From an uncultured SAR86 cluster bacterium (GTDB lineage: Bacteria > Pseudomonadota > Gammaproteobacteria > Magnimaribacterales > D2472), in contig CALSQM010000004.1 in assembly GCA_943788515.1 (NCBI GenBank), forward strand, positions 20,576 to 84,575: a DNA stretch of 64,000 bases. Reading direction: 5' to 3'. Below, piece after piece: positions 1 through 21,619 of this stretch. The first letter of the stretch is position 1, and every line of letters starts with the position of its first letter. The translations under genes were made by a program, and so were the position numbers. The notes below the pieces were generated by a model. The model was not told the DNA's origin. It saw only the letters and a program-made list of their open reading frames with translations, and ran no database searches.

Positions 1-735
1 CTGGTCAGATTTGGGGCTCATCTTGAACACAATAGCCTTAAACCATGCGTCTTTATCTAGAGAATCGTTTGCAAGCGCAATGATATTATATGGATTATTT
101 TTATCATCAAGAACAACATGGCAATTAGTGAACAGCATATCTCCAGAGACGGCTACAGCAGAACCCTGGCTTGAAAAATTACTACCTTGATTTGTAGCAA
201 GGATCATAAACACTGATTTTTCAAACATTTGGAAAACCTGCTCGCCAGAAAGAGTATTTACATTTGTATTTTTTCTATTAAAAATATTAATCCAATCACT
301 TTGACTGGATGATTTAACTTCCTTTTTAGGTCTATTAGCTATGTTAAGGTCCTCTTTCATACTTTCAGGTAAGTCTTTAAACCCAATTAATTGCTTATTT
401 ATACAGACAGAAAATTTACTTGTATTCCGAATCATGGCAGAGTTACAAGGTGCAAGAATATTATTTTTTTGATTTTCTTCCAATGAATCAAAAATAACCC
501 AGTTAATTGAATCTAGAGATAGCTGAGTCTCTTTAATACAATTACTATATTTTTGAATATTTCTCTTCTTAAAAGAACTGCACTTTTTTAAAAGAACTAT
601 ATTTATAAATTCATTTTTTGCTTCTGATGAATATTTATTTTTTGGTGCATTTGCATCACCTGCAACTGGACCGATATCAGAACTACATGATGTTATGGCT
701 ATAAATAAAATAATGTTAAAGATTCTATTTTTCAT
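1..735 (-). CDS. Lipoprotein with trypsin-like (S1, Trypsin_2/DegP-type) serine protease domain; 3' end lies outside the window
   Basis: Not in the ORF track because it runs off the edge. Hand translation from ATG 735..733 gives MKNRIFNIILFIAITSCSSDIGPVAGDANAPK..., a signal peptide with a lipobox-like ITSC. A Cys-containing region of about 170 aa follows, then ...QGSAVAVSGDMLFTNCHVVLDD...AIVFKMSPKSDQ, which matches the GSG..TNxHV catalytic-His region of trypsin-like peptidases. The start overlaps the stop of the upstream ORF as ATGA. Confidence 0.6.
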   Translation of the reverse strand, partial: MKNRIFNIILFIAITSCSSDIGPVAGDANAPKNKYSSEAKNEFINIVLLKKCSSFKKRNIQKYSNCIKETQLSLDSINWVIFDSLEENQKNNILAPCNSAMIRNTSKFSVCINKQLIGFKDLPESMKEDLNIANRPKKEVKSSSQSDWINIFNRKNTNVNTLSGEQVFQMFEKSVFMILATNQGSNFSSQGSAVAVSGDMLFTNCHVVLDDKNNPYNIIALANDSLDKDAWFKAIVFKMSPKSDQ

Positions 736-1151
736 TTTTTAAATGTTTTAAGGGTGCTTTTGATAAAGTTTTTTAAAAAGAAATACAAATTAGTTATTTT
801 TTTTACTGCCCAAATAGGCCAAGCAAAAATAAATAAAAAGCCAAGCCTTAGAAATAAATTATAATTTTTAATTTTCCAAGCTTGAAAAATTTTTTTAACT
901 TTAATCTTATGCTTTACCCTATTTTTTAATTTCTTATATCTACTTCTAGTGCCTCTATAATCTTTATACCTTCTTAAAAAATCACTGTTAAAATGGTATT
1001 TATGAATCAAGGATAATGCATTGGCTTTGATATAAAACCTATAAAAATGTCGTATGTAAGAAATTCTAAAAATTTTAAGAGCTCTTTGCTTAATAGAAAG
1101 CTGTTTAAATGTAAGGGATCTAGTAAACATTTCTACATATGTCCTTTGCAA
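732..1151 (-). CDS. Small, very basic hypothetical protein with a C-terminal hydrophobic segment
   Basis: 139-aa ORF rich in K, R, F and Y, with one hydrophobic stretch (LFLRLGFLFIFAWPIWAV). It is the only open frame filling the 385-nt gap between two genes in an otherwise gap-free genome. Its TGA overlaps the ATG of the next gene (ATGA at 732..735). I recognise no family. Confidence 0.45.
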   Translation of the reverse strand: MQRTYVEMFTRSLTFKQLSIKQRALKIFRISYIRHFYRFYIKANALSLIHKYHFNSDFLRRYKDYRGTRSRYKKLKNRVKHKIKVKKIFQAWKIKNYNLFLRLGFLFIFAWPIWAVKKITNLYFFLKNFIKSTLKTFKK

Positions 1152-2448
1152 ATCTTACTGTATATATAATGTTATTATCATCAGGATTATCAGTGCTTGA
1201 TACTTTTTTTATATTTTTTCTAAGTTTTTGGATGGTTGATTTAGCATCTATGGTAACCAAGCGATTATTGCTATTTGTGTCATCAAAAGTATAACTTTGA
1301 ACCCTTGCTCTATTTTGATCTGTAATTAAAATATCAAAGGTCGCATTAAATTCAGGGTTCCTTTTACCCCTTGCTCTTCTGCAATTAACTACCTTATCCC
1401 ATTTAAATAATGCTTTTTGTGATGATGTCTTGGGAGCTATAAAAGAATCGGTGGTATCTGGTCCACTTATATTATCTTTTTTGTTTTTAGAAATATCTTG
1501 CGATGATGTTTTGGGAATTATTAGAGAGTCAATGATATCTAGTCCGGTTATATCATCTTTAATTTTTTTAGAGCCATCTGGCTGAACCTTATTCATTTGA
1601 TTAAAAGTATCACAAGCGTTTTCTGGAAATCTACTTTTAATTGCTTCATATTTTTTTTCGAAACGTGTTGTAGGGATAAAGTTCATCTCATCTCCTATTG
1701 CTTTTCTTGGAAATTTAGAAATGTCAGTATCAATTAATTCTAAATTAATTAATCTTGCGACATGTTGTGCTTGTCCTTCTTTAAAATCTAAAGATTTGTC
1801 ATGAATAAGAGACATAAATTCTATAATTTCATTTCTTTTAATGTACATCTTATTGGTTATAGTTGAAGCTCCGTCAACCATATCGAAGTCAGTCTCACGT
1901 TTCCTCTCCCAATTAGATTTTATAACTACGATATCACCAGCGCTACACATACCAATATCAAATAAAAATTCAACTGGAGGAGCCCTCTCAACCTCAATAG
2001 GCCAAGCCCAATCCGCACATTGTCTCCAGAATTTTTTATCAATACAGTTTCCTGCTATAAGTGAATCTGCGGGAGGCTCACCTTCAGTTTCTGTTGTATT
2101 ATCCTCAGGAGTTAATCTTTTTATTTCATTCTCAAGCCTTCTCTTGTCTTGTTTTAACTCAGTAATTTGTAGAGCCAATTCTACATTTATAGGTCCTAGT
2201 GGTGAAGGCTCATTATCAGCCTCAATAATTAAAATAAGAGTATCTTTTTCATCCTGCAAGTCAGAATTCATATTTTCTAGATCAACTTTCTGAGTAATTA
2301 AATTATCTACCTCGTCTTCTAAAGATACGTTAGATTGATTAACTTTATTAATATTAAATATTGCAAATAGCATTAATACAAAGAAAAGAATGATGATTAT
2401 TTCTGTAAGCGATGTATTGAATAAGTCCCCATGCTTATTCTTGCTCAT
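1120..2448 (-). CDS. MotB/ExbD/TolR-like membrane-anchored protein with a coiled coil and a Cys-rich C-terminal domain that is not OmpA-like
   Basis: The N-terminus GDLFNTSLTEIIIILFFVLMLFAIF resembles the single TM of ExbD/TolR/MotB (compare INVTPFIDVMLVLLIIFMV), with Glu16 near the position of the essential Asp. Residues about 40-112 are heptad-like (SLEDEVDNLITQKVDLENMNSDLQDEKD...ELKQDKRRLENEIKRL). The C-terminal ~300 aa carry 6 Cys and a 27-aa tandem repeat. I see no OmpA-type peptidoglycan-binding motif. The start overlaps the upstream stop as ATGA. Confidence 0.5.
   Translation of the reverse strand: MSKNKHGDLFNTSLTEIIIILFFVLMLFAIFNINKVNQSNVSLEDEVDNLITQKVDLENMNSDLQDEKDTLILIIEADNEPSPLGPINVELALQITELKQDKRRLENEIKRLTPEDNTTETEGEPPADSLIAGNCIDKKFWRQCADWAWPIEVERAPPVEFLFDIGMCSAGDIVVIKSNWERKRETDFDMVDGASTITNKMYIKRNEIIEFMSLIHDKSLDFKEGQAQHVARLINLELIDTDISKFPRKAIGDEMNFIPTTRFEKKYEAIKSRFPENACDTFNQMNKVQPDGSKKIKDDITGLDIIDSLIIPKTSSQDISKNKKDNISGPDTTDSFIAPKTSSQKALFKWDKVVNCRRARGKRNPEFNATFDILITDQNRARVQSYTFDDTNSNNRLVTIDAKSTIQKLRKNIKKVSSTDNPDDNNIIYTVRFAKDICRNVY
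1417..1560 (-). repeat. Diverged in-frame tandem duplication with an 81-nt period (27 aa) inside CDS 1120..2448
   Basis: 1417..1479 and 1498..1560 align without gaps at roughly three quarters identity. They encode DDITGLDIIDSLIIPKTSSQ and DNISGPDTTDSFIAPKTSSQ. Confidence 0.75.
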
Positions 2449-3347
2449 TTTAATTCTTCTTTAATATACTCTGCATTCGCACGCAGTGAGTAATTAACCT
2501 CACTGTATGTTTTTTTAGTTTCATCTAAGAGGCTTTCTAGTGATTTGTTATAGTCTTCAATTCTTTTTGAGCTATTTTCAAAGGTTTGATTTAAATGCTC
2601 AATATTTGATTCCATAACTGGACTAAGCCTCTCAAGAACTAGATTAAGTGATGTGAACTTAGCTGATAGATCTTCAAAATATTTGAGGTCAATAGCTCTT
2701 GTTTGTGCATTTAAATTCGCTAAATTATCTTTCAATTCATTTGCATTTGATGCTATATCGTGCAAAGTTGCTGAAAGCTCACTTGGAACATCAAGTGTTT
2801 TTGAAAGATTATTTAAATTTCCTGATAATGGAGCTGATACTCTTTCAGCATCAGCTGCTAATGTTGTAAAAGCTCCTGTAATTCTTTGAGTTTGAGTTTC
2901 AAGCTCTTGTGCTTCTGCAATGAGTTTTTCTCTGATTGTTTCTTCACCATTAAATGCATTAGTTGAGGCAAGTTGAAGCCATATTATTCTTGCAACCAAA
3001 CCGATAATAGTGGTAACTAGTGCTAAACCAAAATCTCTTACAACTGAATTAAAAATATTCTCAATCTTGTCTACATCTAGAGCTATAAGTGTATTTATCA
3101 TTGCTATTAGCGTAAGGATAAAACCTAGGTAATAACAACTATCAGCCTTTTGTTCTTTTGATATAGATTCATTCTCATTGAAATAAATGAAATAAATATA
3201 AAAAGCCATAATAGCAATCATAGACACAACATTAATAGCAATATTGCTACCCAAAAAAATAATTAATAAAAAACCAGCTGTGAGTGTTCCACCAAATAGA
3301 TATGAAGGTTTTATAGAAAAAATATTTGAAGACTCGTTTTGTGACAT
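2445..3347 (-). CDS. MotA/TolQ/ExbB-family-like proton-channel protein with a ~170-aa C-terminal helical tail
   Basis: Four predicted TM segments (about aa 16-33, 36-56, 71-90, 105-127). The last two, CYYLGFILTLIAMINTLIAL...FGLALVTTIIGLVARIIW, align by eye with the ExbB core PLLGLLGTVWGIMNSFIGI...IAEALLATAIGLVAAIP. Residues 130-300 are helical with repetitive Leu, Asn and Glu, consistent with a coiled coil. Confidence 0.55.
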   Translation of the reverse strand: MSQNESSNIFSIKPSYLFGGTLTAGFLLIIFLGSNIAINVVSMIAIMAFYIYFIYFNENESISKEQKADSCYYLGFILTLIAMINTLIALDVDKIENIFNSVVRDFGLALVTTIIGLVARIIWLQLASTNAFNGEETIREKLIAEAQELETQTQRITGAFTTLAADAERVSAPLSGNLNNLSKTLDVPSELSATLHDIASNANELKDNLANLNAQTRAIDLKYFEDLSAKFTSLNLVLERLSPVMESNIEHLNQTFENSSKRIEDYNKSLESLLDETKKTYSEVNYSLRANAEYIKEELK

Positions 3348-3358
3348 TATTTCTTATA

Positions 3359-4294
3359 CTACCTTACAATGAATGATCCCTGCCCAGCGTATAAAGATTT
3401 TGTAAAGTAATCCTCCCAAAACTTTTGATGTTCTCTTGTTTGAGCTCCTTCAAAATCAGGATCATCTTTCCTGTTCAGATAAATAACTTGCCATTCAACA
3501 CCTCTTAGGGATCCAAAGGTAGTCCTATAATCTTGTTTCCACTCATTATAGTCAAGTGTGAAATTTCCATATTTAGGAAATTGAGAATACTTACCTTTCC
3601 CACCATATTGGACCATATCTGAGACCATTATAAGATAATGAGGCTTGTCCATTTCTACAGCAAACTCACTTGCTGATAAAGCAGAAATGGTTTCAATTAT
3701 CGGAGATGTGTTTTGTTCAAATTCTACTAAAAGATTTTGCAGTTCATCATCTACTCTCTTTAGTAATTTCTTATTATTTTTCTTAATAATACTTGGATTT
3801 ACAAAAATGCCTTCATTTCCATCTATATCCTTAGGTAATGGGCCTCTGCAAATTGATAAGGGAATGCCGTCACTATCAAGAACGGGCTTTAAGCCATCAT
3901 TAGTATTTAGAGCATCTTGGCTCATGACATACAATTGAATCATAGTATTAGAATCAAATGCTTTTTTATTAAATTGGGATGGGTCTATATCAATACTACT
4001 TTCTAGGATGTCTTCTGTTCTTCCAGAAAGCCATGAAGCAAACATTTTTCTAAGACTTTGAACTTGATTTTTAGGAAAACCTTCAGATTGGTCTATGATG
4101 ATAGCTGTATATGCCGATGGTCCTGCATCAATAGGGCAATTTGTAGTTTTACTTCTTTCAACAAAAAGATCCGGGTCGCCGCTTTTAATTTGGTTCATGC
4201 CATATATAACACCTGCAATTAAAAGAACCAGAGCTACTCCAATCAGAATGGCTTGGTTTTGTTGTTTTTTTTGTTTCTGCTTAAAAGTTGCCAT
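3359..4294 (-). CDS. N-terminally membrane-anchored protein with a vWA-like alpha/beta domain
   Basis: A Lys-rich N-terminus is followed by a TM (AILIGVALVLLIAGVIYGM). Strand and MIDAS-like elements occur in vWA order: YTAIIIDQSEG (DxSxx), NTSPIIETISALSAS (Thr loop) and HYLIMVSDMVQYGG (TDG-like). Confidence 0.4.
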   Translation of the reverse strand: MATFKQKQKKQQNQAILIGVALVLLIAGVIYGMNQIKSGDPDLFVERSKTTNCPIDAGPSAYTAIIIDQSEGFPKNQVQSLRKMFASWLSGRTEDILESSIDIDPSQFNKKAFDSNTMIQLYVMSQDALNTNDGLKPVLDSDGIPLSICRGPLPKDIDGNEGIFVNPSIIKKNNKKLLKRVDDELQNLLVEFEQNTSPIIETISALSASEFAVEMDKPHYLIMVSDMVQYGGKGKYSQFPKYGNFTLDYNEWKQDYRTTFGSLRGVEWQVIYLNRKDDPDFEGAQTREHQKFWEDYFTKSLYAGQGSFIVR

Positions 4295-4310
4295 ATTTTG
4301 TTTCTATTAT

Positions 4311-5702
4311 TTAATATTCTTTTCTTATGTTTCTTATACTAGTTTGAATATCTGGCCATGACTGAAGCAATCTCTCTGCACTTGCTTTAACACTTATAAA
4401 ATTGGCAGACTCTCCATTCATTCGCTGAGATTGGTCATCTAGAATTCTCCAGGTGAAATCAATTTTATTTTCAAAATATCTAGGCACATCAGTATCTCTA
4501 GCCTCTTTATTTGAGGTTCTGTATTGTTCGATAACTGCTTCAAAGCTTCCAGCAAGGTTTTCAAAATAATCACGATATTCTTCTTTTATTCTTAACTCAA
4601 TAAAACCTATGGTTTGTTGAAGGTTTGTAATATGTGTTGTAGCAGAATTTATTAACTTATTCCCCTCTTGAACAAAACCTGAATATAATTCTTCCTGTTT
4701 AAAATTAGCCTCTGATTTAAGGCTTAATAAATTCTCTTCAAAATCATCAAGCTGCAGAGACTTTTTACCATACCCTGGATAGGTATCTGCATGAAAAAAG
4801 GAATCTAATAGCGCTATAAGTGCACACATCATACCTAGTGCAACAAGAAAATAAGAAACAGGCTCACTTAAGGTAAATGGGCTACTTTGTATGGCCTCTA
4901 AAGCTTTATATGCATCCTCCATCCCCTGACCCTCGGGATTAGTTATAGCATCTCTAAAATGTCCAATTAAAAAATTAATAGCAGAGATTAATGAAAGCCA
5001 TATTAGCCCAATAAGGTAGCCAAATATTTTAACTCCAGCTTTGACATGATTAATATTTCTTATAAGCGGAGCTAATATAAGGCCTATAGAAACATTTACG
5101 GCAGAGAATGCAAAAGCCCAAGTCATACCAGCTGCTGAACTTCCAGTTAGATTTTCTCCAAGAAAAACTCCATTTAATATAGTTTCAGCTATCAAGATTA
5201 CAACTAATATCATGACAAAAAACAACGCTGAGCTCATGGGTTTTGCTGGCCTGGTTAATTTATTATTACGCTTAAAACTACTTAAATCTGCTTTTGAAGC
5301 CTTAACATCCTCATTAGCACTTTTTATTCTTCCTTCGTATTCATTTTGAACAGCTTTAATTTGATTATTGAATTTCTGTTCATGTTGACTAAAAGCATTT
5401 TTGTTATCTTCAAGTCTTCCTAAAGTACTGCCAAGTGAATTTATTTGAATATCGATTTCATTTTTCTTTGTTGATTTAAATCTATCGAATTCTGTTTTTA
5501 CATGGGAGTGAAACTTATCATGACTTAAAGCTTCAGAAGGGGGTAGGTTTAGAGAGCCATTAGCTTGTGCTTCACTTTCAACGTTAAAGTGCTCCATCCA
5601 ATGTTCAGTAGTCTGAATGGTCCAGTTAGAATAAATTGAGCTTCCAAGACCAACATCAGGCTTCTCAGTTTTACTAAAAAAATTCTTTATCCAATTTAAC
5701 AT
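4311..5702 (-). CDS. Hypothetical 4-TM inner-membrane protein flanked by helical or coiled-coil regions
   Basis: 463 aa. Residues about 60-150 are a polar helical region. The TM segments are about 158-180, 192-214, 225-248 and 283-304. A DTYPGYG motif follows TM4, then a ~150-aa helical C-terminus. It is the first gene of the operon. I recognise no family. Confidence 0.6.
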   Translation of the reverse strand: MLNWIKNFFSKTEKPDVGLGSSIYSNWTIQTTEHWMEHFNVESEAQANGSLNLPPSEALSHDKFHSHVKTEFDRFKSTKKNEIDIQINSLGSTLGRLEDNKNAFSQHEQKFNNQIKAVQNEYEGRIKSANEDVKASKADLSSFKRNNKLTRPAKPMSSALFFVMILVVILIAETILNGVFLGENLTGSSAAGMTWAFAFSAVNVSIGLILAPLIRNINHVKAGVKIFGYLIGLIWLSLISAINFLIGHFRDAITNPEGQGMEDAYKALEAIQSSPFTLSEPVSYFLVALGMMCALIALLDSFFHADTYPGYGKKSLQLDDFEENLLSLKSEANFKQEELYSGFVQEGNKLINSATTHITNLQQTIGFIELRIKEEYRDYFENLAGSFEAVIEQYRTSNKEARDTDVPRYFENKIDFTWRILDDQSQRMNGESANFISVKASAERLLQSWPDIQTSIRNIRKEY

Positions 5703-5781
5703 TTTTATTATCTTTCTTTAATTAGATTTAAAGCATACCAAATAGATATTTTTATTCAATAAAACTTAAGAATACATATTG

Positions 5782-5812
5782 AATAAGAATCATTATTATA
5801 ATGATTCTTATT
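5782..5812. promoter_or_regulatory. Perfect inverted repeat (13-bp arms, 5-bp spacer) resembling a Fur box, overlapping TATAAT hexamers on both strands
   Basis: aataagaatcatt-attat-aatgattcttatt. The stretch 5797..5815 (tataatgattcttattata) matches the 19-bp Fur consensus GATAATGATAATCATTATC at 14 of 19 positions by hand alignment. It lies in the divergent region between the operon start (5702) and the ferritin-like gene (5906). Confidence 0.45.
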
Positions 5813-5905
5813 ATAAATTAACCATATATCAGTAGTTTACATGAGATTAAAATTAATTTATAGTTTGTAAGCTTTATTTTTTTTGCTTACTTAAGAGGTA
5901 TCTAT

Positions 5906-6346
5906 ATGACGATGAATCCGCTAGAAACACAACAAGCCTGTGCAATATTAAATGAGATCATGGAATATGAGTTAGCTGGTGTTGTCCGCTATACTCACTC
6001 TGCCATGATGGTGACGGGTCCTTATCGAATTCCCATCGTTGCATTCTTAAAAGAACAAGCAGCAGAGTCATTGCTTCATGCTCAAGGAGCAGGTGAATTA
6101 ATAGCGGGGCTTGATGGACACCCAAGTCAAAAAATTGCAAAGATTGAAGAAACAGGAAGACACGCAATCAAAGATATTTTAGAAGAGAGTCTAGGCCATG
6201 AACTTCATGCCGTTGGACTTTATAAAAAACTCTTAGAAGAAGTTGAAAATAAGTCTATATATCTTGAAGAATATGCTCGAGGAATGATCGGAGAGGAAGA
6301 GCAACATTCGCTTGAATTAAAAAGAATGTTGAAAGATTACGGATAA
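5906..6346 (+). CDS. Bacterioferritin/ferritin-like di-iron protein
   Basis: 146 aa, four-helix-bundle-like, with ferroxidase-type ligand spacing: EYELAG, ESLLHA (ExxH), GHELHA and EEEQHS (ExxH). An AGAGG ribosome-binding site lies upstream. Confidence 0.7.
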   Translation: MTMNPLETQQACAILNEIMEYELAGVVRYTHSAMMVTGPYRIPIVAFLKEQAAESLLHAQGAGELIAGLDGHPSQKIAKIEETGRHAIKDILEESLGHELHAVGLYKKLLEEVENKSIYLEEYARGMIGEEEQHSLELKRMLKDYG

Positions 6347-6352
6347 AATTAA

Positions 6353-6790
6353 TTATAGTTTTTTAAAGTATCTTCCATGATGAGCTTCGGATAATTCTAA
6401 AAGCTCCTTGTTGATAATATCTTTAATAGTTCTAGGATCGTATGACTTCAAACTTGCGATTCCAAACTTTTGTAAATCTAAAGCTTGAGATCCAGCAGCC
6501 CTTAATAAATCAAAAATCCATGTAAGCGGATCCATAGAATTATTATAGTTAATTGCATTTTCTTTGAGTTTAAGTTGGAGTAAATCTTGATCTAGGATAT
6601 TAAATCTATCCTTTAAAATAAGGACCTTAAATTTCTCTAATCGATCATTAACAAGCGCCCTTTCGTCTTGTGAAAATTTTGGCCATCCAATGATTTCATG
6701 AACAAACCTTTTGCAGCCTTTACAGACATCATCGCCATATGTTGTTGAACAAATGCCAAGGCATGGGGTCGTTGATCTATTTTTTTGCAT
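6353..6790 (-). CDS. DUF1289-family protein (putative Fe-S/Cys-cluster protein)
   Basis: The N-terminus TPCLGICSTTYGDDVCKGCKRFVHEIIGW matches the DUF1289 pattern PCxGxC...CxGCxR..xE. Confidence 0.65.
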   Translation of the reverse strand: MQKNRSTTPCLGICSTTYGDDVCKGCKRFVHEIIGWPKFSQDERALVNDRLEKFKVLILKDRFNILDQDLLQLKLKENAINYNNSMDPLTWIFDLLRAAGSQALDLQKFGIASLKSYDPRTIKDIINKELLELSEAHHGRYFKKL

Positions 6791-10944: not shown

Positions 10945-11531
10945 TAGGAATCTCCTTTTTCAGAATTTAAATTATCAGAGTCTGGAGATAAGTTTTCTTT
11001 GAACGGTTCAATGATTTCATTAGCTTCCTCAAGAATATTTTTTTTATTATCTAATAAGTTTCTTAGATATGCCTCAATTTGAGGTGCATATTTTTCAATC
11101 ACTGGAGTTATTTTTGATTGATCAATTAAGTCTGTAGATTTTACACTTTTTGGTAACAATAAAAATATTACAAACAAAACAATGAGCCCCCTTGATAGAC
11201 CAAATAAAACTCCAAAAAATTTATCAAAACCTGAAGCTCCAGACCATTTAATAAGCTTACTAATAAATTTGATAGCCATTCCACCAAGAATTATACAAAT
11301 CATAAATACAACGATATAAGCAAGTATTTTAGATACTTCTACATTACCTATAAATTCATTTATTTTAGGGGTTGCCAAGAATTCAAGGGTTATAGCAGCG
11401 ATAAAAGCAAATAACCATAAAAATAAAGATAAAAACTCTTTGGTAAAACCTCTAGATAAAGATATTAGGCCTGATGCTGTCAGAACAACTAAAATAAACC
11501 AATCTGCAACATTTAGACCTAAGGCTTCCAT
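10944..11531 (-). CDS. cvpA: CvpA-family membrane protein (colicin V production protein)
   Basis: The N-terminus NVADWFILVVLTASGLISLSRGFTKEFLSL matches the CvpA signature. It sits in the conserved position upstream of purF. Confidence 0.85.
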   Translation of the reverse strand: MEALGLNVADWFILVVLTASGLISLSRGFTKEFLSLFLWLFAFIAAITLEFLATPKINEFIGNVEVSKILAYIVVFMICIILGGMAIKFISKLIKWSGASGFDKFFGVLFGLSRGLIVLFVIFLLLPKSVKSTDLIDQSKITPVIEKYAPQIEAYLRNLLDNKKNILEEANEIIEPFKENLSPDSDNLNSEKGDS

Positions 11532-11971
11532 CTAAATATTTCTCCTTTTGTGGTTTCAGATATTTTCTGTATGAGCTCTATGTTGTTATGAATATCATTC
11601 TCTTCGTGAAAAGGTCCAACATAAACAGCATAGAGAATTTTTTCTTCACCAAATACCTCAGCGAATGCATGTATTCCATTATCTTGTAATTTGGTTACCA
11701 TCAAAGTTGCGCTATCTTTAGATGATAAAACATGAATTCTCAAAACAAACATATCAAAATCAGATTTTTTAATACTCATAGCTTCTAGGTTCTTATTTTT
11801 AGTATCAAAAACTACATCAATATCTTTCGTTGGTAATATCTCTTTATTATCTTCATCCAGTTTAACCTCCCGTTCATATTGATAGTTTATTTGAGGTTTC
11901 AAAAAAACAAAAAGGGTTAAAAGTAATAACCCTATGATAAAAACTAATCCAGTGAATCTTTTAATACTCAT
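11519..11971 (-). CDS. SPOR-domain protein (DedD-like)
   Basis: N-terminal TM, with a C-terminus like a SPOR domain (FVLRIHVLSSKDSATLMVTKLQDNGIHAFAEV...YAVYVGPF). It sits in the dedD position between accD and cvpA. Confidence 0.7.
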   Translation of the reverse strand: MSIKRFTGLVFIIGLLLLTLFVFLKPQINYQYEREVKLDEDNKEILPTKDIDVVFDTKNKNLEAMSIKKSDFDMFVLRIHVLSSKDSATLMVTKLQDNGIHAFAEVFGEEKILYAVYVGPFHEENDIHNNIELIQKISETTKGEIFRWKP

Positions 11972-20222: not shown

Positions 20223-21619
20223 GACAAGTCTCCAATAACTCCATTAATTGCAGTATGAGCTGCCATAACTGGGCTCATAAGATGCGTTCTTCCAAGATTA
20301 CCTTGTCTGCCTTCAAAATTTCTATTAGATGTAGATGCGCATCTTTCATAGGGCTTTAATTGGTCAGGATTCATCCCTAAACACATAGAGCAACCTGGGT
20401 CTCTCCATATAAAACCTGCGTCCTTAAATATCTTATCAAGACCTTCAGCTTCAGCTTGTGCCTTAACCATTCCCGACCCTGGAACCACAATGGCCTCAGT
20501 TATTTTTTCAGAAACTATTCTTCCTTTTATAACTGATGCAGCCTCACGCAAATCCTCTATTCTAGAATTTGTACATGAACCAATAAAAACTCTATCAAAT
20601 TCTAAGTCTGTTAATTTTTCACCCTCTTTAATACCCATATAATTTTTTGCTAACTCTATGTTTTTCTTATTGGCTTCCGTTTGCATAGATAACTCAGGAA
20701 GCCCTGCATCATAATCTACTACCATTTCAGGCGAAGTTCCCCATGTCACCTGAGGTTTAATTTGAGATATATCAATAACAATCTCTTTATCAAAAATAGC
20801 TTCTTTGTCTGAAAATAAATTATTCCAATGCTTTTGAGCTAGGGCTAGGTCATCGACTGAGAGAGGTGAGTGTTCTTTTACATAGTCGATAGTTGTTGAA
20901 TCAGTGGCGATTAAGCCGACCTTAGCACCGGCCTCAATAGCCATATTACATATCGTCATTCTGGCTTCCATGGATATGCTTTCAATATAAGACCCAGAGA
21001 ATTCAATAGCATGCCCATTACCACCCGCTGTTCCAATTTCTCCTATTAAAAATAAAACTATATCTTTAGACGAAACCCCTCTTTGAGGCGTCCCTTCAAA
21101 AATTACTTTCATATTTAAAAGTTTGGAAACCTTTAATGTTTGCGTAGCAAGAACATGCTCAACTTCTGAAGTTCCAATGCCCATTGCAAGACACCCAAAT
21201 GCACCATGAGTAGAGGTATGAGAATCCCCACAAACTATTGTCATACCCGGTAATGTGTAACCAAGTTCTGGACCAATTACATGAACGATTCCTTGGTTAG
21301 CTGAGGTTATATCAAATTGTTTAATTCCAAATTTATTACAGTTCTTATCAAGCTCAACTACCTGAATTTTTGAGATATCATCACTAATATTTTCTACTGT
21401 AAACGAGTCCCCTCTTTCAGTGGGAACATTATGGTCTGGTGTTGCAATATTTGCCCCAAGCCTCCAAGGCAAAAGACCTTTCTTTGACAGTCCCTCAAAA
21501 GCTTGAGGAGAAGTCACTTCATGAAGATATTGCCTGTCTATGTAAATTAAAGATTCGCCTGAATCAAGAGTTTTTATATGGTGCTCATTCCAAAGCTTGT
21601 CATATAAAGTATTAGGCAT
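20219..21619 (-). CDS. leuC: 3-isopropylmalate dehydratase large subunit
   Basis: [11 protein letters not shown] start, and aconitase-family motifs (DSHT, GSCTNSR). I moved the start to Met14 of the track ORF (ATG 21619..21617), which removes the overlap with aroC. Confidence 0.92.

Follow-up and report, generated by a model that had tools for sequence, protein, structure and literature searches.

A putative motor axle subunit with an invariant transmembrane glutamate in a conserved gene cassette of a SAR86 cluster bacterium

The transmembrane (TM) aspartate in the B subunits of ion-driven membrane motors has been described as 'universally conserved and mechanistically essential', the residue in ZorB being Asp26 (PMC11946911). 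A gene of an uncultured SAR86 cluster bacterium raises the question of how a protein is to be read that is built like such a subunit but carries a glutamate in its TM helix. The gene occupies positions 1120..2448 (minus strand) of a stretch of 64,000 nucleotides (assembly GCA_943788515.1, contig CALSQM010000004.1, forward-strand positions 20,576 to 84,575), which is referred to as the window. Its product of 442 amino acids, here called the B protein, comprises an N-in TM anchor with the invariant Glu16, a coiled-coil stalk and two further domains, A and B. An earlier reading made from the DNA letters alone (the original prediction) had described it as an anchor resembling ExbD, TolR and MotB, with Glu16 in place of the canonical aspartate and with a novel periplasmic module.

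In our reading, the B protein is the B ('axle') subunit of an undescribed family of MotAB/ExbBD/ZorAB-type ion-driven membrane motors, to which we assign a probability of about 65%. Since it lacks the defining aspartate and matches none of the family models, it is described as a protein that would work like MotB, ExbD or ZorB and not as a member of their families.

The anchor protein and its transmembrane glutamate

The N-terminus of the B protein reads MSKNKHGDLFNTSLTEIIIILFFVLMLFAIF. In the AlphaFold2 model, which was built with 28 homologues and reached a mean predicted local distance difference test (pLDDT) score of 66, one unbroken helix comprises TM segment and stalk (residues 9-77), and a second helix follows at residues 86-112. 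The TM helix of this model covers residues 9-31 (2356..2424, minus strand) and the periplasmic coiled-coil stalk residues 32-112 (2113..2355, minus strand), which would extend over about 12 nm when wholly helical. The start of the helix at residue 9, the basic N-termini of relatives and the Cys pairs conserved in the C-terminal domains agree with a topology in which a short N-terminus lies in the cytoplasm, one TM helix follows and most of the protein is periplasmic, as in MotB, PomB, ExbD, TolR and ZorB. Together with the coupling to a MotA/ExbB/ZorA-like gene (see below), this bears out the single ExbD/TolR/MotB-like anchor that had been proposed for the open reading frame (ORF).

Database searches with the protein itself returned little. 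A Pfam scan at E<=1 gave no OmpA, MotB_plug or ExbD match, in agreement with the earlier remark that an OmpA-type peptidoglycan-binding signature is absent, and no significant match was obtained with the PADLOC ZorB and the NCBIfam models. The only direct Pfam/NCBIfam matches were weak ones to DivIC and FtsL, which cover the TM segment and the coiled coil and lie far below threshold. A match to GldL (E 0.11) was likewise of the coiled-coil type. Full-length profiles of the B protein and of its partner subunit A against PDB sequences were swamped by coiled-coil matches, and for the stalk only PDB matches of this type were found.

Homologues, in contrast to these family matches, are numerous. 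About 47 close ones with 37-71% identity originate from marine metagenomes and SAR86-type gammaproteobacterial genomes, a distant group was found besides, and a profile search of 1.84 billion representative proteins yielded 104 relatives at E<=1e-3. These fall into two groups, full-length proteins of about 390-460 amino acids (SAR86-type and related) and a much broader set of 250-390 amino acids. The proteins of the broad group share the TM motif at the N-terminus, fLFGlTLTEvaFILFF; a long coiled coil follows, and their C-terminal domain carries the pattern PPCW...ECRHFV...YFYK. A profile search with the broad family returned only 8 proteins, with coiled-coil words saturating the search.

Glu16 (codon GAA, 2401..2403, minus strand) is the proposed ion-coupling carboxylate. 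In an alignment of 49 sequences, which includes divergent homologues and has a mean column identity of 16%, it is the sole invariant column (Glu in 49 of 49). The same picture emerged from 80 further loci that were located by scanning metagenome contigs: Glu was found in all 66 intact N-termini, representing 50 distinct TM sequences, and Asp in none. Glu16 is furthermore the only charged residue of the TM helix. None of the 15 residues after it bears a charge or an amide group in its side chain; the corresponding stretch comprises 17-20 residues after D23 of TolR, D25 of ExbD and D32 of MotB. In its geometry, Glu16 appears compatible with the canonical Asp. Asp8 was also considered as the functional acid and was ruled out, as it is not conserved in the distant SAR86 relatives L004 and L005.

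Since Glu is invariant throughout a large family, the observation is stronger than it appeared at first reading. Glu is present in all of these homologues at a TM site that may correspond to that of the essential Asp in characterised relatives. Engineered variants provide a measure of what a glutamate can do in the known motors. ExbD D25E retained 5-10% of the activity, and exchange of Asp for Glu in MotB and TolR left a partial, reduced activity (10.1101/2022.09.26.509584; PMC6663468). Since such variants retain partial activity, Glu is chemically competent but sub-optimal in canonical channels, and a native Glu that is invariant throughout a family implies an adapted channel. If true, a large natural family of this kind would show how a channel adapts to the longer carboxylate side chain, and would allow models of ion coupling and ion selectivity to be tested on a natural example.

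As the original prediction had noted, the stalk is followed by an acidic linker that contains Pro. It covers residues 113-140 (TPEDNTTETEGEPPADS) and is disordered in the AlphaFold2 model. The remainder of the protein had been described as one domain of about 300 residues with six Cys. The six Cys are present (135, 144, 168, 279, 356 and 438), but the model comprises not a single domain but two folded ones (about 141-285 and 345-440) with a disordered stretch at residues 283-343 between them. This stretch contains a 14-residue repeat, residues 304-317 (DIIDSLIIPKTSSQ) and 331-344 (DTTDSFIAPKTSSQ), with the two copies 27 residues apart (window 1420-1540, minus strand). Compared to most homologues in the alignment designated A1, the repeat constitutes an insertion.

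Domain A (residues ~141-285; 1594..2028, minus strand) is an alpha/beta domain with pLDDT values of 80-90. A comparison of the SAR86 domain A with the C-terminal domain of the broad family by hhalign gave a probability of 99.4% and an E of 2.8e-21. Since the two are homologous, domain A can be regarded as the family-defining periplasmic domain; in the broad family it carries the PPCW...ECRHFV...YFYK pattern with two invariant Cys. No match was found for it in PDB sequences, Pfam or NCBIfam, and no profile relationship to the periplasmic domains of ExbD and TolR, to TonB_C or to TolA_C. At the level of sequence, domain A is thus novel.

Domain B (residues ~344-442; 1123..1419, minus strand) is different in this respect. 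It was modelled as a beta-beta-alpha-beta fold (strands 367-375, 381-388 and 426-433, helix 393-408; pLDDT about 88) with a Cys356/Cys438 clamp. It occurs in SAR86-type and other homologues of about 390-460 amino acids and is absent from the shorter proteins of the broad family. A Foldseek search with the whole B model returned the C-terminal domain of Vibrio cholerae TolA as the best match (4g7x_B, E 0.07, probability 0.77), and TonB2 of V. anguillarum (2k9k) was listed with an E of 0.44. Pfam TonB_C (PF03544) gave sub-threshold matches in 4 of 22 family members, the best with an E of 0.0027 and L004 with an E of 0.034, while the window B protein itself gave no match. With the domain B profile of the family, TonB chains in the PDB were obtained at E 0.09-0.12 over 65 positions. 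The hhalign comparison of the domain B family with the C-terminal domain of E. coli TonB resulted in a probability of 65% and an E of 6e-5; taken separately, the window-type domain B gave an E of 0.037 and the L004-type an E of 2.9e-4, and both types are clearly homologous to each other (probability 97.6%). Based on these four weak lines of evidence, domain B is probably a diverged TonB_C/TolA-like domain. The novel periplasmic module of the original prediction is therefore to be narrowed to domain A. A TonB-like C-terminal domain had been named there as the finding that would speak against it, and domain B, with its Foldseek, Pfam and hhalign matches, goes part of the way in this direction.

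The A subunit and the four-gene cassette

The gene directly upstream (2445..3347, minus strand) encodes a MotA/ExbB/ZorA-like protein of 300 amino acids, here called the A subunit. Its stop codon and the start codon of B overlap by 4 nt (ATGA). The model of A comprises four TM helices, the fourth of which continues into a cytoplasmic helical tail of about 170 residues. Invariant residues include the EQKADS loop, G75, T79, A109, T112, T113, G116 and R120.

Several comparisons connect A to the known motor subunits. Against Pfam MotA_ExbB (PF01618) it scored 21.6 bits, just below the gathering cut-off of 22.9, in the TM hairpin region of the profile, and the A homologues of L004, L005, L010 and L011 scored 16.9-19.5 bits in the same region (positions 58-112 of 127). 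A precomputed PF01618 annotation exists for the homologues P0093, P0099 and P0133. PADLOC ZorA2 matched A with an E of 3.7e-5. By hhalign, the TM part of A aligned with E. coli ExbB plus TolQ over 48 columns (E 1e-3), placing T79 on T148 and T113 on T181 of ExbB; the alignment with TM3-TM4 of MotA was weaker (E 0.013) but showed an identical register. The top Foldseek matches of A were ZorA (8qyd_A with a probability of 0.80 and 8vvi_C with 1.0), PomA, ExbB and TolQ (9kpz, 8vlw), and the superposition on ZorA 8vvi_C gave a TM-score of 0.80 and a root-mean-square deviation of 2.2 Å over 93 columns. Judged from the models, with all E-values above 1e-3, A appears to comprise the fold of the TM hairpin that lines the B helices as well as the conserved channel Thr/Ser. 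The signals are individually sub-threshold, weak but pointing the same way, namely to a MotA/ExbB/ZorA-like protein. Since all of them agree, A and B are treated as an A/B pair of the 5:2 motor superfamily.

The spacing of the invariant residues in A allows a cautious statement on the coupling ion. One helix contains G-x3-T (G75, T79) and the next one A-x2-T-T (A109, T112, T113). The Na+ site of PomA comprises G154, T158, A182, T185 and T186; stators driven by H+ have Ala instead of T158 and T185 (PMC10374538). The invariant residues of A match this site by motif, and the coupling ion could therefore be Na+ rather than H+, as far as a motif allows this to be said. The motif 'ALiTT', which aligns with T112/T113 of A, also occurs in MotA of C. 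sporogenes (6ysf), within 'GT ... ALiTT'. Two turns below T113, in the half of TM4 that faces the cytoplasm, A carries the invariant R120, which corresponds to an Ala of ExbB. A pairing of R120 with Glu16 is conceivable, but the residue could also do no more than mark the membrane boundary. Just before TM3, the loop S-x-EQKADS-x-YY-x-GF (region of residues 63-70) is invariant in SAR86-type A subunits, and only ADS-x-YY-x-GF is found in L010 and L011. Both the cytoplasmic loop motif and Arg120 are candidates for elements of ion exit or of pairing with the glutamate.

Two further genes precede A. The gene g2 (3359..4294, minus strand; 311 amino acids) encodes a protein with an N-terminal membrane anchor and a periplasmic domain, which contains two invariant Cys and the pattern D-x-S ... 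S-P-I ... S-D. Since integrin alpha-M I-domains (E 0.019 and 0.088) were the only PDB matches of its profile, g2 is possibly vWA-like. The gene g1 (4311..5702, minus strand; 463 amino acids) encodes a protein with a coiled-coil region at the N-terminus, a helical region at the C-terminus and a polytopic membrane core between them. It could be assigned to no known family, and its profile gave only coiled-coil noise against the PDB. The gaps amount to 16 nt between g1 and g2 and 11 nt between g2 and A. Of the 40 metagenomic loci whose sequence extends more than 4.2 kb upstream from B, 39 show the order g1-g2-A-B, and the remaining one comprises a B fragment only. The order recurs in three SAR86 loci (L001, L004, L005) and in two unrelated ones (L010, L011). 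The sources include sediment, soil, freshwater and marine samples. None of the four proteins is covered by a Pfam, NCBIfam or PADLOC family. Altogether, g1-g2-A-B is a conserved, previously undescribed and widespread cassette. In L010 (5350-6823), two ORFs of 228 and 259 amino acids take the place of one g1 homologue, which may reflect a frameshift, a pseudogene or an assembly error.

Likeness to known motors and competing explanations

Compared to the known systems, ZorAB (ZorA5B2; PMC11946911) shows the closest likeness in structural and PADLOC matches, with ZorA chains as the best structural and ZorA2 as the best PADLOC match. In both cases the MotA/ExbB-type TM core of A continues into a long helical tail in the cytoplasm, whose length varies. 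B crosses the membrane once with its N-terminus inside, bears one TM carboxylate that looks essential and contains a disulfide in its periplasmic part, and the A-B pair is accompanied by accessory genes. In contrast to ZorB with its Asp26 and an OmpA-like peptidoglycan-binding domain, the B protein carries Glu, no OmpA domain, and a long stalk with the novel domain A, with or without the TonB_C-like domain. The accessory genes are the membrane and periplasmic g1 and g2 and not ZorC, ZorD or ZorE, and apart from the weak ZorA2 match PADLOC found none of the Zorya components ZorB-G among the four cassette proteins. Furthermore, A comprises four TM helices compared to three in ZorA, and its tail is shorter, with about 170 residues in the window and up to about 470 in relatives.

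The likeness to ExbB-ExbD-TonB concerns the alignment of the TM3-TM4 hairpin of A with TM2-TM3 of ExbB, the ExbD/TolR style of the B helix (xNxSLTE-IIIILFFVLML compared to INVTPFID-VMLVLLIIFMV) and the resemblance of domain B to the C-terminal domain of TonB. However, Glu stands for Asp25 of ExbD, no ExbD-type periplasmic domain was detected, and the TonB_C-like domain is fused to B, whereas TonB is a separate TM protein with an SHLS motif and a Pro-rich spacer that is absent here. The cytoplasmic tail of A, g1 and g2 have no Ton counterpart. With TolQ-TolR-TolA, the cassette shares a TolQ-like A core, the C-terminal domain of TolA as best Foldseek match of B and a long helical periplasmic stalk like domain II of TolA, but stalk and C-terminal domain are located on the carboxylate-bearing subunit, Glu replaces Asp23, and TolB or Pal partners are missing.

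As in PomAB and MotAB, the A gene comes first and its stop codon overlaps the start codon of the B gene, four TM helices are present in A, and the residues G75, T79, A109, T112 and T113 correspond by motif to the Na+ site of PomA. Differences are the missing plug helix, OmpA-like peptidoglycan-binding domain and FliG-interacting cytoplasmic loop, the Glu instead of Asp24 (PomB) or Asp32 (MotB), and the very weak hhalign match to MotA (E 0.013). A glutamate as key carboxylate of a 5:2-type motor is found in GldLM/PorLM of gliding motility and type IX secretion, where the B-type subunit also has a long dimeric periplasmic extension and the A-type subunit a cytoplasmic helical tail. In GldLM, this glutamate (E49 of GldL) belongs to the A-type subunit, and its partner is Arg9 of GldM. 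The arrangement in the cassette is the reverse, with Glu on B and the invariant Arg (R120) on A, and the only sequence match is the coiled-coil one to GldL mentioned above.

If the cassette encodes a motor, two B helices would be located inside a ring of five A copies, by analogy with the solved 5:2 motors, and ion flow via the A/B interface would drive the rotation of A around B. Glu16, as the only TM carboxylate, would take the ion-coupling part, while G75, T79, A109, T112 and T113 of A may line the channel, where Na+ coupling instead of H+ coupling is conceivable from the motifs. The dimer-compatible coiled coil of about 12 nm would bear the disulfide-containing domain A, and in the long SAR86-type and related B proteins the flexible linkers and the TonB_C-like domain B could reach the outer membrane or a partner located there. 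The polytopic coiled-coil membrane protein g1 would be a likely partner of the ZorA-like tail of A, and the periplasmic, possibly vWA-like g2 a likely partner of the B stalk. Such an assembly might act as a transducer that spans the envelope and, as Zorya does, couples what happens at the outer envelope to a response in the cytoplasm or the membrane. The exported nucleases that are often encoded nearby, joined in SAR86 by the lipoprotein protease, would then be its effectors. Confidence in the transducer role is low. A Zorya-like envelope surveillance with exported effectors and a scavenging of extracellular polymers each fit parts of the evidence.

A number of observations weigh against the reading as a motor. 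No single homology signal to known motors reaches a curated or conventional threshold, the Pfam match of A ending just below the gathering score, and none of the ExbD, MotB and ZorB models matches the sequence of the B protein. No Foldseek match was obtained at E<=1e-3, and a TM-only profile of A found no PDB sequence. Concerning the glutamate, hhalign gave no signal for the B TM region against ExbD plus TolR or against MotB. In an ungapped profile register test with the acidic column omitted, the Asp register ranked only 2nd or 3rd for ExbD and TolR, while the best register placed Glu16 three residues, or one helical turn, nearer to the cytoplasm than Asp. Since this test does not favour the Asp register, a residue-level equivalence of Glu16 with the canonical Asp is not claimed; of the substitution in the original prediction, the glutamate stands, and its exact replacement of the Asp is a possibility. 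The monomer models are modest, with mean pLDDT values of 66 and 64, and the 5:2 stoichiometry, the rotation and the ion coupling are carried over from other motors by analogy. The role assignment is weak as well. The synteny of the SAR86 loci across divergent lineages indicates vertical inheritance rather than a mobile defence island, a tblastn search of phage and plasmid collections with a single B protein of the broad family (P0216) gave no match, and the nucleases next to the cassette carry signal peptides, whereas Zorya effectors are cytoplasmic.

The last three points apply equally to a Zorya-like defence against phages and other mobile genetic elements, in which the motor would sense a perturbation of the envelope, the A tail and g1 would trigger a response and the neighbouring nucleases would be the effectors. 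The ZorA-like architecture of A with its PADLOC and Foldseek matches fits well into this explanation, as does the wide variation of the tail (A of 351-599 amino acids among the metagenomic loci). Nuclease genes adjoin the cassette in about a third of the loci, and the flanking genes also include homologues of Hhe, HerA, type I restriction endonuclease, DpdF, PsyrT, UzuA, GajB and PDC-S37 as well as four ResIII and three integrases. In L010, the cassette is located between the methylase of a type I restriction-modification system and a transposase. These flank counts, however, are raw and have no matched background, a conserved cytoplasmic effector is not present, and the cassette is absent from the PADLOC models. 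Defence is regarded as a somewhat unlikely explanation. The apparent vertical inheritance in SAR86 would agree with an uptake energiser of the Ton/Tol type, in which the SAR86 B protein is a fused ExbD-TonB, domain B engages TonB-dependent transporters or another outer-membrane partner, and the exported SNase and the trypsin-like lipoprotein digest extracellular DNA and protein as nutrients. SAR86 genomes are rich in TonB-dependent receptors. The likeness of domain B to the C-terminal domains of TonB and TolA, a stalk and linkers long enough to cross the periplasm, and the lipobox protease and signal-peptide SNase that follow the cassette in the window genome and in L001 point in the same direction. 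The broad family of about 260-330 amino acids lacks domain B, however, yet retains g1, g2, the A tail and the glutamate. In addition, the conserved cassette contains neither a TonB-dependent transporter nor an inner-membrane importer, the ZorA-like cytoplasmic tail has no role in Ton or Tol systems, and the TonB_C assignment is sub-threshold, with the window-type sequences alone only reaching the E of 0.037 given above. Nutrient uptake is considered unlikely.

An explanation without any motor would be a bitopic coiled-coil scaffold similar to FtsB/FtsL/DivIC or to an anti-sigma factor, with the TM glutamate serving helix-helix association, for example by a salt bridge to Arg120 of A, and not ion coupling. 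The DivIC and FtsL matches as the only direct ones of the B protein, the missing significant alignment to the TM regions of ExbD, TolR or MotB and the invariant R120 in a position where ExbB has Ala could be understood in this way. Yet the DivIC and FtsL matches reflect generic features only, the partner A is consistently MotA/ExbB/ZorA-like in sequence, profile and fold, its polar channel positions are invariant, and the order of A and then B with translational coupling is a hallmark of stator pairs. A scaffold is considered improbable, and the motor reading is preferred. Its most far-reaching version is held only tentatively. In this version, the cassette would be a new class of 5:2 rotary motor that uses Glu and possibly a PomA-like Na+ site, forming a widespread envelope machine that controls exported nucleases, either in a new defence against phages or foreign DNA or in the scavenging of DNA and protein, and in SAR86 the axle would have acquired a TonB-like domain that gives it direct access to the outer membrane. 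With four conserved genes, no curated family, a distribution from soil to open ocean and a recurrent location next to exported nucleases and defence genes, the cassette is a candidate for a new envelope system. For SAR86, which is abundant in the sea and uncultured, the fusion of a motor subunit with a TonB-like domain would, if true, bear on the question of how streamlined cells energise processes at the outer membrane.

Genes around the cassette

Downstream of B, a small basic ORF of 132 amino acids (732..1130, minus strand) with 35 K+R compared to 2 D+E and a C-terminal hydrophobic segment shares 11 nt with the end of B and 4 nt with the start of the following protease gene. By tblastn it matched L001 at 11200-11562 with 52% identity (E 8e-38), where no gene is annotated, and its equivalent is annotated as a gene on the contigs L097-L099. 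The possibility of an AT-rich artefact was ruled out by this protein-level conservation in L001. A basic ORF of 137 amino acids in L002 takes the matching position and shows no detectable sequence similarity. The protease gene (1..735, minus strand) is cut by the start of the window, which contains the 5' part of a trypsin-like lipoprotein protease with the lipobox IAITSC. It showed 60% identity to the protease of L001 (tblastn, E 4e-95), for which Pfam Trypsin_2 was found with an E of 1e-22, and the full gene of 361 amino acids is present on L097-L100. On contigs with an identical B protein (L097, 11714-13659), the protease is followed by a convergent signal-peptide SNase, a Ser/Asn/Tyr-rich protein of 127 amino acids, two TM2-domain proteins and umuDC. 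The SNase lies two to three genes downstream of the cassette in the window genome as well as in L001.

Among 34 non-redundant metagenomic loci with 240 flanking ORFs, an exported nuclease gene was found within three genes of the cassette in 10, as a raw count without a matched background. A signal-peptide SNase gene lies directly upstream of g1 (position -1) in five of them (L054, L081, L085, L088, L089), an endonuclease I gene at +2 or +3 in three (L032, L058, L062), and a small PD-(D/E)xK-like secreted protein is encoded at +1 in two (L043, L073). The same PD-(D/E)xK-like family occurs at -1 in the SAR86 loci L004 (4319-4702) and L005 (4198-4548). In some cases, the SNase near the cassette is fused to Excalibur.

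The flanks of the cassette are shared between two SAR86 lineages whose A subunits are only 36% identical. On one side, a ferritin-like gene was found in the window (5906-6346, plus strand) and in the distant L004 (2332-2808), and on the other side a umuDC-Metallophos-PPIase block in L097 (15051-19140) and L004 (10042-13110). These shared flanks indicate that the place of the cassette in the chromosome is conserved and that the segment downstream of B varies. No canonical ExbB, ExbD or MotB motif was found elsewhere in the window; the window also contained no tRNA, and its positions 1-6500 gave no Rfam match.

Other loci carry additional genes. In a gammaproteobacterial metagenome-assembled genome (L011, 9807-16397, and likewise L012), the cassette is followed by an RHS-repeat protein of 1832 amino acids with a lipase-like region and by an ICMT-family methyltransferase. 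Four sediment loci (L020, L022, L023 and L027) comprise three additional genes upstream of g1, for example at 232-3307 of L020. These encode a VWA-domain protein of 580-600 amino acids, a membrane-anchored coiled coil of about 210 amino acids and a membrane-anchored acidic protein of about 220 amino acids with terminal EPDWGDAFSESGD repeats, and may constitute an accessory module.

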